This document shows, one piece after another, positions 21,001 to 64,000 of a DNA stretch of 64,000 nucleotides. Source of the stretch: Trichormus sp. ATA11-4-KO1 (GTDB taxonomy: Bacteria; Cyanobacteriota; Cyanobacteriia; Cyanobacteriales; Nostocaceae); contig JAHHIM010000055.1 of the NCBI GenBank assembly GCA_019358915.1, forward strand, positions 64,001 to 128,000, read 5' to 3'. How positions within the stretch are numbered: position 1 is the stretch's first letter; each line of letters opens with the position of its first letter. A program made the position numbers.

Positions 21001-24000
21001 ATTTAATCAAATATATCCCGATTTGCATCTAAAACCACAAGAGTGTCTAGCAATTGAAGATACACTACCAGGAATTCAAGCGGCAAAACAAGCGCAAATG
21101 CAAGTAGTTGGTGTAGCGAATACCTACCCATTTCATATGCTTCAGCGTTGCTGTAACTGGACTGTAGATTATCTCATTGATTTAGAATTGGCACGGGTGC
21201 AGGAAGTTTATTCACAAAAAGAGCTTCAGCCTACTGTCGGGGAGTGTTAAAATATTCTTTGGTAGTTAAATGTCGATTTTAGGGCACATAGCTCAATCAA
21301 GGGGAATTAGCTCAGCTGGTAGAGCGCTGCGATCGCACCGCAGAGGTCAGGGATTCGAGTTCCCTATTCTCCATTTTGACATTAAATGTTAGCTTTATTA
21401 ACCCCGCTTGCTGTCCTAATGTTGTCTTAAAGAATATCACAGTATTACTTGTATTTCTCCGTCCTGTTCATCAACCTGATAAAAACAAGTAATAGGGATT
21501 TCCCCGTCTTCCCCTAAGTACCCTACAAGCCTAAATGTTACGCCAGGGTATTGAGATAGCCCTAGTGTTAGGCTTTGCTCTAGTGACCTCAAGAGCCTGG
21601 GCAGGTCAGATACCACAGTAAACTCAACCCCACCTATACCAAAGTCGGGGGTCATCACCCTTTCTTCATATGTAGTCTGTAATATGTGCGCTATGACCTC
21701 AGGTATGGTTCTATCATACTCAGAGGTTAACTGTACTGTACCGTTTAGTATAGTTATAGGGTATTTAAAAGTAGTCATAGTTTACCTATATTTAGTCAGG
21801 TTGACTAAGTACCAATAACCATTGAGGTAACTTATGATTGTTAGTCCTGATAGACTTTATCGCGTACTTGAACACTTGGATTCAGCCCTAGCCGAGTTAC
21901 AGGAAGCATCTGTAGAATCGCCGACTGACCGTACACTTCGCAGGGTTATTACTATTGTCATTACAGCCTTAGCTGTACTACGGTTTTACGTGGCTACTAA
22001 CTAGGGTTGACAGTTAAGGTTAACCTGGTTATAATATTATTTATAATACTAGGTTAACTGATTTATGGAACTCGTTAGAGATAATAAACCCGCGCCTGTT
22101 TACCCGTTGGAAGTGGCGAGAGAGTTGCCAGCAGGGGTTATCAGAGCATTTTGGCACCCTGAATATGGTAGACTATACCTATGGGATGACGTTAAGTATG
22201 CGTTTGATTATGAGGGTAAAACGGGTAACTCAGTAGTAAGATACATGAAAGGTAACTTACAAAATCCCGCTCTGGGTCTCCTCTGGCTAGAGAGAGAGTG
22301 AGTGTCAGATTTAAGTTAACCGAGTTTCAAAAATGTAAATCCCATATTTGGCTCACCGCAAGGGGTTTTGTTTTAACACTAGAACATTCTAAATCACCTA
22401 ATATAGTAAAACTTAAGCAAGCTATAGAAGCTCAAGTAGACTGGGAGTTGTTCAAGGTAACTTTTATGAGTCATGGGTTCTCTCAGCTATCCCCACAATC
22501 TAACACTAGATTAGCTATGGAAGTTGAACTAGAGAAAAAGATTTTACCATATTCACAACGCACCATTTTAAGCCTAAAATCTGCTTAAACCCACCCCTTG
22601 GTAACTAAAGTATCATTACGGCTGTCCATGGCTCCCACAGTGCAAACTTGGGAGCCATTTATGGTTACAGATGTTGCCTGAGTAAACTCCACAGACTCAG
22701 CCGCCATAGTTAACCCTGTAACCCCTGTAATCTCCATATTACCCTCAGGCTTTACTGTAACTATCACCGATCCTACTTTGATTACTAGGTCATCTCCTGA
22801 GTTAATCACAGGATTACGTAGGTTCTGCATAGACCCAAAATATACCCCTTGATGCGGGTCTCCATCAATGAAGCCCATTAAGACGGTTTCACCCGCTAAG
22901 GGTAATGGGGGGCTAAATGAACTAAATGGTAATGAGCGGTATAGCCAGTTAGTGTTAGACCTGCCCCCCTTAGAAGCGTCTAAGCACTGGATACGTCCTA
23001 AGCCTAAGGGGTCGTCAGTTACACTAACTATCCCGTAGGCTAACCCTTGCACTCGACCTTGTAGTCCTTGGTTAGCTTTGACCAAATCTGCGAAAATGTC
23101 CATCACTTAATAATCCCTTGTACTCTTAGGTCTGCTACTCTGAAGGTACCCGCAACGCCCCCGGATTTATAAGTTACCGTGACGTTACCGACCTCATCTG
23201 TGGCTACATTAACGCTTTGGTTTCTAATATTTAACTTAGCCCTTTTACCTGAGTTTTTTAGGGCTTCCGTTACCGAGTTAGTTATATTCTGCCGTTCTCT
23301 AGGTGTGTAAGTTACCTGAGGCTTACCAATAGTGCTAGGGGTGACCGCTACGGGTTCTCTACTAATGAGTAAGTCTAAGTTAGCCTCAGCCTGTGTGACT
23401 TTACCCGATCTCCATTGCTGCTCTACGGGCGTAAACCTGAGTATATGACAACGCTCGATAGATGTAGAGCTAAAGCTAAACCTTAAACTAGCTCCTGAGA
23501 TACACCATGATGTTAGTTGCTGTATGGTATCAGTAACGTCCTTAGTCATACCTTGGGATATAAAAAGTATCCGAGGGATTACTAAGGTACTAGTAGAGCT
23601 ATTCCAGCGTGTATCTGGTTTATCAGTCCCCAATACGCTATTAGTTGCATAAGTAGCTTGGTGCGACCACTGCAACTTTTCAGGGTCTAGTAGAAAGTTA
23701 TAAGTTATCTTACCGTCAGATAGGGTAGCCCCCGTAGTCCCTAAGGGCTTATCAGGTAGTCTATCTTGCATTTATTACTATTAAGTCAGGCTAGGCTATT
23801 CTGTTGATATTGTACATATGCTTGGTTTAGGGCTTGCAGCATAGCTTGCGCGTTCTCTTGGGGGTTACCATTTTGTACTGGTACATTTATAGTAGGCGCA
23901 AATGATTGCTTAGTCTCTTTGGCTATAGGTACACTAGGTAGCGGTAATCCAGGGGTGACTACAGGTTCTACGGGGGTAGATTTAGTATCACTAGGGTTTA

Positions 24001-63000: not shown

Positions 63001-64000
63001 CTCCCACCCGTAATGCTTTGTATGATATTATACAAACACTAGCTACGAAGAATGAGCTAGATACTAAAGTAGCCGCAGAAGACGCTGTGCTAACTGGTAA
63101 TCCTACAGCCACTACTCAAGCAACAGGGAACCGTAGTACGAGGATAGCCACTACTGACTTTGTTGGTAACGAGCTAGACGGCATTGGTAGGGTATCTATA
63201 GGTGACATTTTGATACACCCGACCACTGCAGCACCAAATAAATACAGGGTATTAACTAACCCAGGGGAAGTAGTGAGTCAGACCACCTACGCTGAGTTGT
63301 TTGCACAAATCGGTACCACTTATAACACGGGGTCAGAAGGAGCGGGTAACTTTAGGTTGCCATCTAATGGGGGTGGGGTACCTTTTGGGGATACTCGTAT
63401 GAGATGGGTTATCTATACAGGCGTGTGATTGACTAAATAACGATAAATATATATATATTCATCACTATGGCTGGATTATACCCTAATACTCCTTTTTCGG
63501 AAGGTTCCGTATTTACGCCCGAACTTGCAGACTTAGCTTTTGAGGCTCCCATTTTTGACGGTCAAAATCAGTACAAAGGGCATCGGGAGAAGATCAGGGA
63601 TGACGAGTTATCCGATTTAGCTGGGGCAACTAAGGATAGATTGAGGATAGTTACGGATGGTTTAAAGCCTTCGGTAAGTTCGGGGTTAACTGTAGCGTAC
63701 CAGTCAGGTACAGTTGTGTTACCTAGTGGTGAGCTATTAGCCATAGTTAGTGGGTTAATCGTAGTACCTGATAATGCTACTAGCCTCATTTGGGTGGATT
63801 CTTTAGGGGTTATTGCATCCGGCACGATAGCACCTGCTATTAGGATATTAATAGCTAAAGTCACTACAGTATCAGGTACCATTACCGCGTTACAAGACCT
63901 TAGATTTAATGGGTTACATCCGGTAAGCCCTATTAGCGCGTCTATTAAGGTATTTGGAGGTTCTAATACTCAAGATAAGGTATGCACTAACGGTGAAGTA

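Follow-up and report, generated by a model that had tools for sequence, protein, structure and literature searches.

A Temperate Cyanophage Candidate in a tRNA-Ala Gene of Trichormus sp. ATA11-4-KO1 with a Probable Intein-Bearing, Pol-Gamma-Type DNA Polymerase

What kind of element occupies the 3' part of a tRNA-Ala(CGC) gene in Trichormus sp. ATA11-4-KO1, and is its large DNA polymerase of the mitochondrial type, as a survey of the genome had proposed? We analyzed a stretch of 64,000 nucleotides (the window), in which position 1 is position 64,001 of contig JAHHIM010000055.1 (C55). Very probably, the element is a cyanophage with a contractile tail and a temperate lifestyle; it spans 46,595 bp, is integrated in tRNA-Ala(CGC), and carries an intein-bearing Pol-gamma-type polymerase.

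Integration site and borders

The survey's finding described a prophage of about 46.6 kb in tRNA-Ala(CGC), with a perfect 61-bp repeat and a tyrosine integrase at its right end, and each of these points was borne out. The exact direct repeat has two copies only in the 5.97-Mb assembly, extends 0 bases further on either side, and consists of 48 nt of the tRNA (positions 26 to 73) followed by another 13 nt downstream. On the right, attR is identical in sequence to attL and lies at C55:131921-131981 (equivalent to window positions 67921-67981), past the window end; the integrase and a Baseplate_J gene also lie there, and all three were read from the genome sequence. The integrase (phrog_1, 9.1e-54; Phage_integrase, 76 bits) adjoins attR at a distance of 78 bp. 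In a congeneric genome (G140), the empty site runs from an HAD gene through an identical tRNA-Ala and 225 bp to a YjeF gene, without insert, and the flanks are 96% identical between the two genomes. Borders and empty site can thus be read directly from the two genomes. Since the element has no counterpart in the congener, it appears to have been acquired recently, and the empty site points to its mobility. The tyrosine integrase would recombine the phage attP with the tRNA gene. Because attP would carry a copy of tRNA positions 26 to 73 and the 13 nt, the tRNA at attL remains intact, its 3' 48 nt coming from the att core, and the 61-bp duplicate would then mark attR.

A 73-contig draft assembly, for which the sole run found (stored as contigs only, and probably its source) is labeled metagenome, might raise the suspicion of an assembly artifact or contamination, with a phage contig misjoined to the chromosome. 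However, a single contig of 404,903 bp contains both junctions and is free of N from C55:85001 to 133000, the congener has the two flanks in synteny on one contig, and the repeat is exactly the 3' part of the tRNA, as site-specific integration predicts. The same architecture is found at tRNA-Met in Floridaenema, and we consider an artifact hardly credible.

Gene content

A PHROGs scan of the 55 ORFs gave a match at E<=1e-3 for 20 of them, leaving 35 of 55 without one. The head and contractile-tail module and the replication module that had been claimed are present and unbroken by PHROGs and Pfam matches (Table 1), and the PHROGs values were reproduced for the integrase, large terminase, portal, major head, sheath, tube, primase, and endonuclease VII proteins, as well as for a baseplate wedge protein (6e-26) and the polymerase (phrog_22619, 1.1e-112). 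The element is 88% coding, and no broken, frameshifted, or truncated core gene was seen. No holin, excisionase, or clear repressor was recognized among the 55 ORFs with PHROGs and Pfam. These data support a tRNA-Ala-integrated, contractile-tailed phage of presumably temperate lifestyle with its own replication module.

Table 1. Features of the element and its left border, by position in the window
Feature	Position	Strand	Evidence
tRNA-Ala(CGC), intact	21301..21373	+	ARAGORN; Rfam RF00005 63 bits; 73/73 nt identical in congener G140
attL core, 61 bp	21326..21386 (C55:85326-85386)	.	Whole-genome exact-match scan
gpW/gp25-like baseplate wedge protein, 113 aa, final gene before attL	21437..21778	-	Pfam GPW_gp25 E 3e-4, 21 bits (below 27.2-bit cutoff)
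gpV-like baseplate spike, 173 aa	22585..23106	-	Pfam Phage_base_V 27.4 bits vs 23.8-bit cutoff
Conserved tail/baseplate protein, 222 aa	23103..23771	-	Syntenic homolog in Floridaenema; no PHROGs/Pfam family match
Putative tape measure, 611 aa	23786..25621	-	Position only (between tail assembly chaperone and baseplate genes); homolog in Floridaenema at 31-32% identity; no PHROGs/Pfam family match
Dam-like N6-adenine methyltransferase candidate, opposite strand, moron-like	25971..26486	+	Pfam Dam E 8e-5, 22.8 bits (below 28.1-bit cutoff)
Tail assembly chaperone candidate, 94 aa	26655..26939	-	Pfam Phage_TAC_7 E 1.3e-4, 22.3 bits (below 25-bit cutoff)
Transcriptional regulator candidate, 101 aa, possible repressor	28707..29012	+	phrog_2657 3.3e-6
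Tail completion/neck protein	29830..30342	-	phrog_5 1.1e-13; Pfam HK97-gp10_like 23 bits
Tail tube protein	30722..31159	-	phrog_5102 2.9e-10
Major capsid protein	31245..32270	-	phrog_37569 1.5e-11
Portal protein	34564..36189	-	phrog_145 3.7e-30
Terminase large subunit	36465..37739	-	phrog_2 5.7e-38; Pfam Terminase_6N
HTH protein, 145 aa, candidate small terminase by position only	38051..38488	-	Pfam HTH_38 and Sigma70_r4, both weak
C5-cytosine DNA methyltransferase	40342..41112	-	Pfam DNA_methylase 53.6 bits; phrog_363, phrog_116
Endonuclease VII (Holliday junction resolvase type)	41174..41563	-	phrog_2633 4.9e-34; Pfam Endonuclease_7 76 bits
721-aa protein with C-terminal M23 peptidase domain (lysin or tail-associated lysin)	43339..45504	-	Pfam Peptidase_M23 104.6 bits; 31 PHROG families
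dNMP kinase-like protein	45952..46500	-	phrog_139 5.8e-9
Pol-gamma-like family A DNA polymerase precursor, 1092-aa ORF	46885..50163	-	PF18136 114.9 bits vs 26.7-bit cutoff; 14/14 PDB matches Pol gamma
Intein, 243 aa, residues 623-865 of the 1092-aa ORF	47569..48297	-	Pol gamma alignment gap; absent from 32/37 clade members
Primase/DUF5906 NTPase (primase-helicase type)	51643..53454	-	phrog_25243 2.5e-54; Pfam DUF5906 34.5 bits
5'-3' exonuclease (FEN type)	54562..55554	-	Pfam 5_3_exonuc_N 36.8 bits; phrog_26716 3.8e-25
Contractile tail sheath	56248..57735	+	phrog_17610 2.3e-50, phrog_23 5.9e-31
Noncoding repeat-rich region between divergent genes, 823 bp, candidate control or origin region	58531..59353	.	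7 direct-repeat families; 3 promoter-like motif copies
P2 gpI-like baseplate protein	61727..62308	+	Pfam Tail_P2_I 39.6 bits; phrog_32946 3.3e-20
Tail fiber/collar-domain protein	62331..63428	+	Pfam Collar 33.4 bits; tail fiber PHROGs
5' part of 455-aa tail-region gene, ending at C55:128834 beyond the window	63467..64000	+	ORF lists; 46% identical Floridaenema homolog

The element shares with P2-type temperate myoviruses the sheath, tube, tail chaperone, homologs of gpV, gpW, gpJ, and gpI, and a tyrosine integrase. Unlike them, it encodes a family A polymerase and a primase of its own, carries att and int inside the baseplate module, and has capsid relatives solely among cyanophages: in a tblastn search with the major capsid protein, 9 of 9 matching phage records were cyanophages, the best being Leptolyngbya phage Lbo402-yong5 at 30% identity. 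P2 itself uses a rolling-circle initiator.

Affiliation of the polymerase

The polymerase probably starts at the ATG at position 50139, giving 1084 aa; in the alignment, its homologs start at the position of M9. As claimed, all PDB sequence matches were to Pol gamma (best, 9c51_A at 2.6e-93), and no other family A polymerase in the PDB passed E 1e-3. The protein is colinear with 9c51_A over query residues 134-433, 439-623, and 867-1089, and the alignment to solved Pol gamma also spans the stretch that joins the exonuclease domain to the polymerase domain. Invariant in 14 aligned polymerases are D134/E136, N183/Y186/D187, Y281/D285, D557/E562, K617/Y621, Y868/G869, and H1001/D1002/E1003, which we take to represent the Exo I-III and Pol A-C motifs. 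The earlier searches held up as well: 70 phage records matched, with S-CBWM1, S-TIM5/54/61/66, Mic1, and A-HIS1/2 matching over the full length at 26-30% identity, and 0 of 388 other Nostocaceae genomes carried the polymerase. Three of the 388 match at E ~1e-6, only over residues 621-703, which correspond to the intein N terminus.

In the phylogenetic analysis, the 54 Pol-gamma-type rows split from other PolA rows with a support of 100. Within them, the Trichormus polymerase falls in a separate, monophyletic clade of 37 members (SH-aLRT 97 and 96), outside a group of published cyanophage and eukaryotic Pol gamma sequences that excludes this clade with a support of 92 in the 59-row tree and 99 in the 27-row tree. 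A tree constrained to unite every phage-type row is rejected, at a cost of 15.2 lnL (p-AU 0.0067, in a post hoc test under a simple model). The two trees and the identity of 30% at most to published cyanophage Pol gamma would suit a family A subfamily in its own right, which has no more than a PF18136-type exonuclease domain in common with Pol gamma and only a remote mitochondrial link, a reading that we regard as possible but somewhat doubtful. Against it stand the exclusively Pol gamma matches in the PDB, the alignment across the region linking the two domains, the separation from other PolA, and the order of its database relatives, in which members of its own clade are followed by fungal Pol gamma proteins (E 1e-83 and below) and these precede other phage PolA. 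Membership in the Pol gamma superfamily is supported by sequence comparison, and polymerase activity is predicted. The term "mitochondrial-type" used in the survey's finding is too strong for a clade that stands apart in two trees.

Tailed cyanophages with a PF18136 family A polymerase include A-HIS1/A-HIS2, S-TIM5, S-CBWM1, and Mic1. According to PMC7156551, Pol gamma has a FEN-type exonuclease and a primase as neighbors in Mic1, A-HIS1/2, and S-CBWM1, as it does in the Trichormus element. The Mic1 gene is also interrupted by a mobile element, a 298-bp intron, whereas the Trichormus gene is interrupted by an intein in motif B. At 46.6 kb, the Trichormus element is smaller than these phages (55.7 to 172 kb in A-HIS1/2, S-TIM5, S-CBWM1, and Mic1), and unlike the isolated Pol gamma cyanophages, it is integrated via a tyrosine integrase in the chromosome of a filamentous member of the Nostocaceae. 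The literature searched, to which most subscription journals do not belong, is in line with the statement that the Pol gamma phages published so far were isolated from unicellular hosts. Once excised, the phage would replicate with its primase/NTPase, FEN-type exonuclease, endonuclease VII, dNMP kinase, and Pol-gamma-type polymerase.

An intein in motif B

The polymerase had been called a full-length homolog of 1084 aa. The superfamily homology stands, but the length does not, since about 243 aa are an intein in motif B; intein-less relatives have about 830-930 aa. The intein combines a HINT domain with one LAGLIDADG-type half-domain and splits the motif as K..YG, intein, x-YG. In the clade, 32 of 37 members run through an uninterrupted YG-x-x-YG, and 5 of 37 are interrupted at exactly this point. 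All five of these have C, S, or T as the +1 residue, versus 8 of the 32 without insert, and the five carriers require 5 state changes on the tree. The AlphaFold model of the intein (pLDDT 94.3) had 40 PDB fold matches at E<=1e-3, those listed being without exception intein, Hedgehog, or BIL structures (HINT fold); PDB sequence matches to inteins were weak (E 0.03-0.23).

Searches with the intein yielded 2502 cluster representatives at E<=1e-3, with the match internal to a longer protein in 150 of the 150 listed. Among the 30 best host proteins, 25 are DNA_pol_A, broken near profile position 218 where the match abuts the insert, and the intein-bearing non-Pol-gamma proteins tested showed no N-extein similarity at E 1e-3. 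The intein is a member of a large family with motif B as its homing site in many phage family A polymerases that are unrelated to one another. In phi92-like Escherichia phages (Justusliebigvirus; PaulScherrer, MZ501100), DNA polymerase I, an unrelated family A polymerase annotated by its depositors as "intein-containing DNA polymerase precursor," has an intein at the same motif B insertion point, of 245 aa versus 243 aa, with the last six residues identical and 36% identity end to end (E 3e-44). Since our literature search found no paper describing this phi92-type intein, nor experimental proof of splicing, its splicing stands as the depositors' annotation.

Judged by position, the Trichormus intein also has the triplet Trp(B:12)-Cys(F:4)-Thr(G:5) of class 3 inteins (prototype, mycobacteriophage Bethlehem DnaB), as H69-x-W71, C222 located 21 residues before the terminal Asn, and T241 two before it, and all of these residues are invariant in the 30 sequences of its family. 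The spacing matches Mle DnaB (H65/W67/C124/N145) as given in PMC5222942 and PMC2807308. However, class 3 inteins are defined by lacking an N-terminal nucleophile, whereas Cys1 is invariant in the Trichormus intein family. The Trichormus intein further differs in its penultimate Gly, in its polymerase host (P-loop ATPases or helicases for class 3), and in a +1 Cys, which has been reported for only one class 3 intein.

A dead intein, or some other insertion, would leave the polymerase split in motif B and inactive, with replication performed by host enzymes. Such a reading could draw on the Pfam Intein_splicing score of only 15.3 bits against a 35.8-bit cutoff, on the Gly at the penultimate position where His is usual, and on a homing endonuclease that may be inactive because there is only one LAGLIDADG-type motif. 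Yet C1, T66, H69 (T66/H69 forming block B), W71, C222, T241, and N243 are invariant in the 30 sequences, as is the penultimate Gly (G242) itself, a nucleophilic +1 residue is always present, the frame is open across both junctions, and the HINT fold is confident. Phage inteins without a penultimate His are reported to splice (PMC5050341). We judge a dead insert very improbable. The insertion, its HINT fold, and the retained catalytic and splicing residues are plain from sequence and model, and the polymerase would be a precursor from which the intein, predicted to splice, must be removed to form the active site.

Promoter-like motif

A promoter-like motif has 15 of its 29 genome copies inside the element, and most of these precede a start codon by 35-47 bp. 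Roughly twelve copies close to the consensus are preserved, and transcription may start at these as copies of one consensus sigma-70-type promoter. The conserved palindromic spacer of the motif is a likely operator; both functions are predicted.

Floridaenema relatives and a split baseplate operon

Database records of two Floridaenema genomes, F. aerugineum and F. fluviatile, contain related prophages, of which we know no description. Homologs of 31 of the 55 proteins occur in the Floridaenema element, and the shared genes include the whole replication module, the sheath (55-56% identity in both genomes), TerL (47-48%), the portal, and baseplate genes. In F. aerugineum, the borders of the element are a 51-bp repeat taken from the 3' part of tRNA-Met, starting at tRNA position 27 versus 26 in tRNA-Ala of Trichormus, and the integrase of this element likewise adjoins attR. 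The F. aerugineum element differs in spanning about 71 kb between repeats rather than 46.6 kb and in an integrase only 31% identical to that of Trichormus; the Floridaenema polymerase is without intein.

In F. aerugineum, the baseplate genes V (83746-83156), W (83127-82810), and J (82774-81641) directly follow one another, and the Floridaenema homolog of the 113-aa gpW-like protein, 34% identical, lies directly between gpV and gpJ. In the Trichormus element, attL comes after W, and J follows int by 14 bp. Since attP and int sit between gpW and gpJ, integration splits the baseplate operon, so that gpW closes the prophage on the left and int-gpJ on the right; excision should restore the order V-W-(attP-int)-J. 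The comparison covers two closely related Floridaenema genomes, one of them examined across the whole element.

A module contiguous in these relatives is thus interrupted by attP/int, and the split operon, with gpJ stranded behind int, could be what makes the element a cryptic prophage, whole in its genes but no longer inducible and giving neither excision nor particles. The unrecognized excisionase, holin, and repressor would fit such a state. The perfect repeats, the high coding fraction with core genes free of visible frameshift or truncation, the retained catalytic residues of polymerase and intein, the preserved promoter motif copies, and the recent acquisition all speak against it, and we consider it unlikely. 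Gene content, clade membership, and synteny are evident from sequence; "intact," as the prophage had been called, is suggested by its unbroken genes, and its excision is predicted.

The survey had also allowed that the integrated copy is not unique in nature. This holds, and with related prophages in two Floridaenema species, Trichormus is not the sole filamentous host. IMG/VR lists the Trichormus provirus as a UViG, with borders apparently shifted. The window also carries a heterocyst sRNA, which agrees with a Nostocaceae host.

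Integration of the element into a tRNA-Ala gene

An exact 61-bp repeat, found in two copies only in the genome (73 contigs, 5.97 Mb), delimits an element of 46,595 bp, a length that includes the left repeat and excludes the right one. Identity between the two copies ends immediately at either flank. The repeat consists of positions 26 to 73 of tRNA-Ala(CGC), 48 nt in all, followed by 13 further bases, and because it supplies those tRNA positions the tRNA is whole at the left junction. The window covers C55:64001-128000; the rightmost 3.9 kb of the element lie beyond it and were read from the genome as two stretches, L001 and L002. 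A gene for a tyrosine recombinase adjoins the att site there, its start 78 bp from attR (phrog_1 at 9.1e-54; Phage_integrase at 76.3 bits). Host genes identified by Pfam as encoding RtcB, a methyltransferase, and a HAD hydrolase lie to the left of the tRNA, and to the right of attR stand a PIN-domain gene and then a gene for a YjeF-type NAD(P)HX dehydratase.

G140, a genome from the genus of the present host, has an empty integration site at this locus. Both flanks of the element are found there on one contig at 96% identity and only 282 bp apart: a 73-nt tRNA gene identical to the present one (G140:C174) is followed, without any insert, by 225 bp of unrelated spacer and the YjeF gene. The polymerase of the element has no match anywhere in G140. 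An assembly artefact was considered and rejected, as both junctions fall within one contig that is syntenic with the congener, and a plasmid or phage-plasmid state was likewise rejected, the element being chromosomal and bounded by att repeats. The survey's observation of a prophage integrated at tRNA-Ala is correct, and its main reading stands.

Just right of attR, a 1,047-bp segment that holds the PIN-domain gene and a 71-codon ORF separates the repeat from the YjeF gene; it is absent from G140, which has the 225 unrelated bases instead. We regard this segment, which lies beyond the repeats, as a variable piece separate from the element; it may be the leftover of an earlier insertion at tRNA-Ala or a small toxin-antitoxin cassette. 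Rfam recognized no RNA family within the element besides the tRNA. In the host DNA upstream of the prophage it matched a heterocyst small RNA, cyano_het_sRNA, at 87 bits, which agrees with a heterocyst-forming host.

Features of the element and its surroundings (window position 1 is contig position 64,001)
Feature	Window position	Contig or stretch position	Strand	Remarks
cyano_het_sRNA	13338-13393		+	Rfam; host DNA
tRNA-Ala(cgc)	21301-21373		+	ARAGORN; Rfam concurs
Left 61-bp repeat (attL)	21326-21386	C55:85326-85386
First plus-strand gene island	25680-26486		+
Second plus-strand gene island	27263-29488		+
101-aa regulator candidate	28707-29012
Polymerase ORF	46885-50163		-	1092 codons
Putative intein	47569-48297		-	243 aa, residues 623-865 of the ORF
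Noncoding stretch between divergent genes	58531-59353			823 bp; 3 promoter-motif copies; 7 direct-repeat families (13-59 nt)
Right 61-bp repeat (attR)		C55:131921-131981
PIN-domain segment		C55:131982-133028 (L001:3982-5028)		1,047 bp

Gene content and organization

The element was read as a set of 55 nonoverlapping ORFs, 20 of which have a PHROG match at E ≤ 1e-3, and the PHROG values reported by the survey were reproduced in this set. Coding sequence makes up 88% of the element, the G+C content is 43.6% compared with 41.7% for the genome, and no broken core gene was seen. By PHROGs and Pfam, the structural proteins comprise the large terminase subunit (TerL), portal, major capsid protein, a neck or tail-completion protein, tail tube, and sheath, along with a weak tail-chaperone match, gpV, a weak gpW/gp25 match, Baseplate_J, P2 gpI, and a fiber with a collar domain. 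A contractile tail is indicated by the scores of the sheath (2.3e-50), the tube (2.9e-10), Baseplate_J (67.8 bits), Phage_base_V (27.4 bits), and Tail_P2_I (39.6 bits); gpW reaches only 21 bits, which is under its Pfam cutoff. A 611-aa protein encoded between the chaperone and baseplate genes is a tape-measure candidate by its position alone. The capsid protein matches nine phage records, all nine of them cyanophages, the best being Leptolyngbya phage Lbo402-yong5 at 30% identity.

The replication genes encode a primase/DUF5906 NTPase, a FEN-type 5'-3' exonuclease, the polymerase, a dNMP kinase-like protein, and endonuclease VII. Other genes encode a C5 methyltransferase, a weak Dam-like match, and a 721-aa M23-peptidase protein. 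Neither PHROGs nor Pfam recognized a holin, an excisionase, or a definite repressor among the 55 ORFs. Two small islands of plus-strand genes break up the minus-strand late genes, and they include the Dam-like methyltransferase candidate, a 244-aa protein without matches, and the 101-aa regulator candidate.

The att sites divide the baseplate genes. In a related element of Floridaenema aerugineum, gpV, a 113-aa gpW-like gene, and Baseplate_J follow one another on one strand with gaps of 28 and 35 bp. In the present element, the gpW-like gene is the last before attL, and Baseplate_J lies at the opposite end, 14 bp downstream of int and on the same strand. A circular form would have the order V, W, attP, int, J, so that integration parts J from its module and excision would restore the order. 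J may then be transcribed from the late operon by way of int or from a promoter belonging to int; a consensus scan for promoters and terminators around int and gpJ, which returned 12 promoter-like sites compared with 5.4 ± 2.5 expected, favors neither source.

A repeated promoter-like motif

Allowing for a single mismatch at most, the genome has 29 copies of the motif GTTGAC-N7-GTCAAC, and 15 of these copies are in the element, where they span window positions 22006 to 58915 (e.g., 22006, 25622, 27206, 41147, 51008, 51629, 54542, and 58571). When oriented, the copies share a consensus -35 box and a TATAAT-like -10 box, separated by a spacer of 17 to 18 nt that includes a conserved palindromic stretch, and most of them stand 35 to 47 bp upstream of start codons on both strands. 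By its sequence the motif reads as a repeated consensus sigma-70-type promoter, and the conserved palindromic spacer would be a candidate operator for a phage repressor. The plus-strand island units at 25680 and 27263 have motif copies of their own 39 to 40 bp upstream of the start, and a weaker copy is found 248 bp upstream of position 27913. The 823-bp noncoding stretch listed in the table may be a control region or a replication origin. Tandem Repeats Finder gave nothing notable in the element. In the cyanophage Mic1, ten repeats of a motif that bears a promoter are reported (PMC7156551).

A polymerase of the Pol gamma type

Homologues of the polymerase begin at the residue that aligns with M9 of the 1092-codon frame, and the protein is therefore probably 1084 aa, the length quoted in the survey; residue numbers used here follow the 1092-codon frame. 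The mitochondrial-type 3'-5' exonuclease domain PF18136 was recognized at residues 72 to 300 with 114.9 bits against a cutoff of 26.7 bits. All 14 PDB sequence matches are Pol gamma catalytic subunits, with 9c51_A at 2.6e-93, and the alignment to that chain runs in three colinear stretches over residues 134 to 1089, minus the insert described below, covering the exonuclease, spacer, and polymerase regions. Residues D134/E136, N183/Y186/D187, Y281/D285, D557/E562, K617/Y621 with Y868/G869, and H1001/D1002/E1003 are invariant in 14 aligned sequences; we take these acidic and aromatic residues to be Exo I to III and Pol motifs A to C. In a collection of 5.8 billion proteins, the nearest sequences outside the polymerase's own clade are fungal Pol gamma proteins, ahead of other phage polymerases.

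Two trees place the protein. The larger has 59 rows and 843 columns and was computed under LG+C20 PMSF with a quick search and SH-aLRT support. In it, 54 rows of the Pol gamma type are set apart from other family A polymerases with support of 100, and the clade of 37 rows that holds the present polymerase is monophyletic (support, 97; 96 in a smaller, 27-row tree). The published cyanophage proteins of A-HIS1, S-CBWM1, and S-TIM5 form another group (97), which is joined to the eukaryotic Pol gamma proteins (92, not starred). The 27-row tree, made under LG+G4, agrees with the larger one, with support values of 96, 99, and 98 and with 99 for cyanophages plus eukaryotes. Forcing all phage-type rows together on the 27-row set was rejected in an AU test (15.2 lnL units worse; p-AU, 0.0067), for which the grouping was named post hoc, after the first tree had been seen, and the model is a simple one. 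The outgroup has long branches, and four of its rows had been picked up by way of their inteins. Two rows first labeled as outgroup, P0051 and P0052, turned out to be eukaryotic Pol gamma and were dropped from the 27-row set, and both trees were built without Mic1, whose gene is split, and A-HIS2. In both trees, each from a quick search, the present polymerase falls outside the clade of mitochondrial and published cyanophage Pol gamma. It represents a distinct Pol-gamma-like clade that is probably sister to that group, and in this member of the clade the polymerase appears to be made as an intein-containing precursor.

An intein within motif B

Residues 623 and 867 flank a gap in the alignment to solved Pol gamma that falls exactly within motif B. 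Among the 37 clade members, 32 read straight through this point and five have an insert at the identical position: the present polymerase and the database sequences P0009, P0010, P0011, and P0012. Directly after the insert, three of the five carriers have C, one has S, and one has T; among the 32 noncarriers, 8 have one of these three residues at that position. Five changes of state are required on the tree to account for the five carriers, so the intein comes and goes.

The translated insert has features of an intein: Cys, one of the two residues (Cys or Ser) expected at position 1, a block B T-x-x-H, one LAGLIDADG-like motif, a C-terminal Asn, and then Cys at the +1 position, where C, S, or T is expected. 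It is 36% identical over its full length (E, 3e-44) to a feature that is annotated as an intein within the DNA polymerase from Escherichia phage PaulScherrer. Pfam Intein_splicing (PF14890) stayed under its cutoff (15.3 bits against 35.8; E, 0.017), and a PDB sequence search with the insert alone gave weak intein matches only; the argument for an intein is drawn from the other findings. An AlphaFold model of the insert, made from an alignment of 30 sequences, has a pLDDT of 94.3 and a pTM of 0.90. Its best Foldseek match is the TliVMA intein 7qsu (E, 3.8e-9; TMq, 0.71), and all those listed among 40 PDB fold matches at E ≤ 1e-3 are inteins, Hedgehog proteins, or BILs, with VMA inteins associated with homing endonucleases in the lead. 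The insert is predicted to adopt the HINT fold.

The middle of the model, at about residues 129 to 201 of the insert, is a single alpha-beta-beta-alpha-beta-beta unit whose helix 137-151 ends in D151-G152, and it is predicted to be one LAGLIDADG half-domain. The intein thus has one LAGLIDADG motif and not the two of a pseudo-dimeric core; P0009, P0011, and P0012 have about 85 extra residues and a second such motif. Pfam run on the insert alone found no LAGLIDADG match.

In the 30-sequence family alignment, C1, T66, H69, W71, C222, T241, G242, and N243 are invariant. The penultimate residue is therefore Gly in all 30 members, and phage inteins without a penultimate His have been described as splicing in the part of the literature consulted (PMC5050341). 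Class 3 inteins have a WCT triplet at positions B:12, F:4, and G:5, which is matched here by W71, C222, and T241, the positions being assigned by spacing to H69 and N243 rather than by residue-level superposition: the Trp forms H69-x-W71, the Cys lies 21 residues before the terminal Asn, and the Thr lies two before it. The triplet is assigned to these positions in the inteins Bethlehem DnaB, Mle DnaB, and Msm DnaB-1 (PMC2807308, PMC7664689, PMC5222942). However, class 3 inteins are defined by having no N-terminal nucleophile, whereas the present family keeps Cys1 in 30 of 30 members. As judged from these residues, the family carries a mixed class 1/class 3 signature.

The insert alone was compared with 1.84 billion cluster representatives and matched 2502 proteins at E ≤ 1e-3, of which 96 were at E ≤ 1e-30. 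In the best 150 of the 2502 the match is internal to a longer protein in every case, and about 103 of those 150 match residues 1 to 243 in one piece, so a form of about 245 aa is the common one. The best 30 host proteins comprise 25 with DNA_pol_A, one portal, one with a LAGLIDADG domain only, and three with nothing recognized. Where a DNA_pol_A match abuts the insert, it is broken near profile position 218. The present intein is 50% identical to that of P0010, from the same polymerase clade, and 45 to 46% identical to those of P0048, P0080, and P0054, database polymerases whose N-exteins have no similarity to the present polymerase at E 1e-3. Such a distribution is consistent with horizontal homing into motif B of family A polymerases that are unrelated to one another. 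Three genomes from a single genus of Nostocaceae (L019, L020, and L021; G150:C193, G147:C8, and G156:C1) match residues 621 to 703 only, at an E value of about 1e-6, so they carry distantly related inteins in other long ORFs, which are open frames of 571 to 779 aa.

Relatives of the whole element

In a pattern scan of one genome per species over 185,579 species, a kind of scan that can miss members, full-length relatives of the polymerase were found only in Floridaenema fluviatile and F. aerugineum; they are 45 to 46% identical to it and have no intein. Both genomes have homologues of the sheath (55 to 56% identity) and TerL (47 to 48%) within about 30 kb of the polymerase. In F. aerugineum, homologues of 31 of the 55 element proteins lie between 52 and 122 kb of the contig, in an element of about 71 kb (G402:C235:51359-122380; stretches L023 to L026) bounded by a 51-bp exact repeat. 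That repeat is the 3' part of tRNA-Met(cat), from tRNA position 27, and an integrase 31% identical to the present one abuts its right copy. The architecture is as in the present element, but the target is tRNA-Met rather than tRNA-Ala and the length about 71 rather than 46.6 kb. The same gene set is present in F. fluviatile (G401:C66).

Several clade members are on contigs of 40 to 46 kb, and two IMG/VR contigs of 43 and 52 kb encode polymerases that are 36% identical to the present one. IMG/VR already lists the present provirus: over the 23,276 bases compared, a 46,406-bp UViG (L008) is identical to C55:100888-124163. If colinear throughout, that UViG would extrapolate to C55:93209-139614, with borders about 7.8 kb to the right of those of the att-defined element, and would therefore miss the left 7.9 kb and include about 7.6 kb of host DNA. 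The survey had found the polymerase in 0 of 388 other Nostocaceae genomes, and our search bears this out. The element is not unique in nature or in databases, and the best description of it is as a new and well-delimited representative of a temperate cyanophage lineage that has so far gone undescribed. This lineage counts 37 database clusters and three chromosomal copies so far.

Implications for Pol gamma and for protein splicing

Mitochondria of animals and fungi use Pol gamma as their replicase, an enzyme for which a phage origin has long been hypothesized. Its noneukaryotic relatives in the literature searched so far are confined to five isolated cyanophages of unicellular hosts, namely A-HIS1, A-HIS2, S-TIM5, S-CBWM1, and Mic1 in the list given with the description of Mic1, where it is also stated that no Pol gamma gene was found in bacteria (PMC7156551). 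A reclassification of family A groups "several cyanophages" with Pol gamma, and the word intein is not used in the sections consulted (PMC10201439). The literature searched, which was mostly outside subscription journals, yielded no account of a prophage with Pol gamma or of an enzyme of this type that contains an intein. The present results add to the Pol gamma family a separate clade with far more members in databases, at least three of which are integrated prophages of filamentous cyanobacteria. The borders, the empty site, and the full gene set defined here make it possible to test induction, replication, and enzyme activity in culture. The polymerase is also a natural case of a replicative enzyme in which an intein of mixed class 1/class 3 signature interrupts the active-site motif, and such an intein would be useful for asking how splicing works and whether it controls phage replication. 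The practical value is modest; the benefit lies mainly in understanding how polymerases and inteins evolve and in cyanophage biology.

A far-reaching reading, which we put forward as speculation that is rather unlikely to hold as a whole, would link these observations. The prophage lineage would be a temperate, early-branching sister of the source of lytic-cyanophage and mitochondrial Pol gamma, and in the present member the intein would gate the enzyme posttranslationally. Three conserved cysteines, Cys1, the Cys at block F position 4, and Cys+1, would stand beside the class-3-type WCT triplet in such a gate, and splicing could respond to the redox state of the photosynthetic host. If this were true, lysogeny would give such a polymerase a concrete way to settle in a cellular genome, and phage replication after induction would depend on protein splicing.

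Interruption of the gene has a parallel in Mic1, whose Pol gamma gene is reported to contain a 298-bp intron (PMC7156551). The Mic1 gene is split by an intron and the present gene by an intein, so that different mobile elements have entered conserved catalytic regions of the same type of polymerase. In the Mic1 record (L030, MN013189: 80222-83198), the annotated CDSs are 412 bp apart, compared with the 298 bp of the paper.
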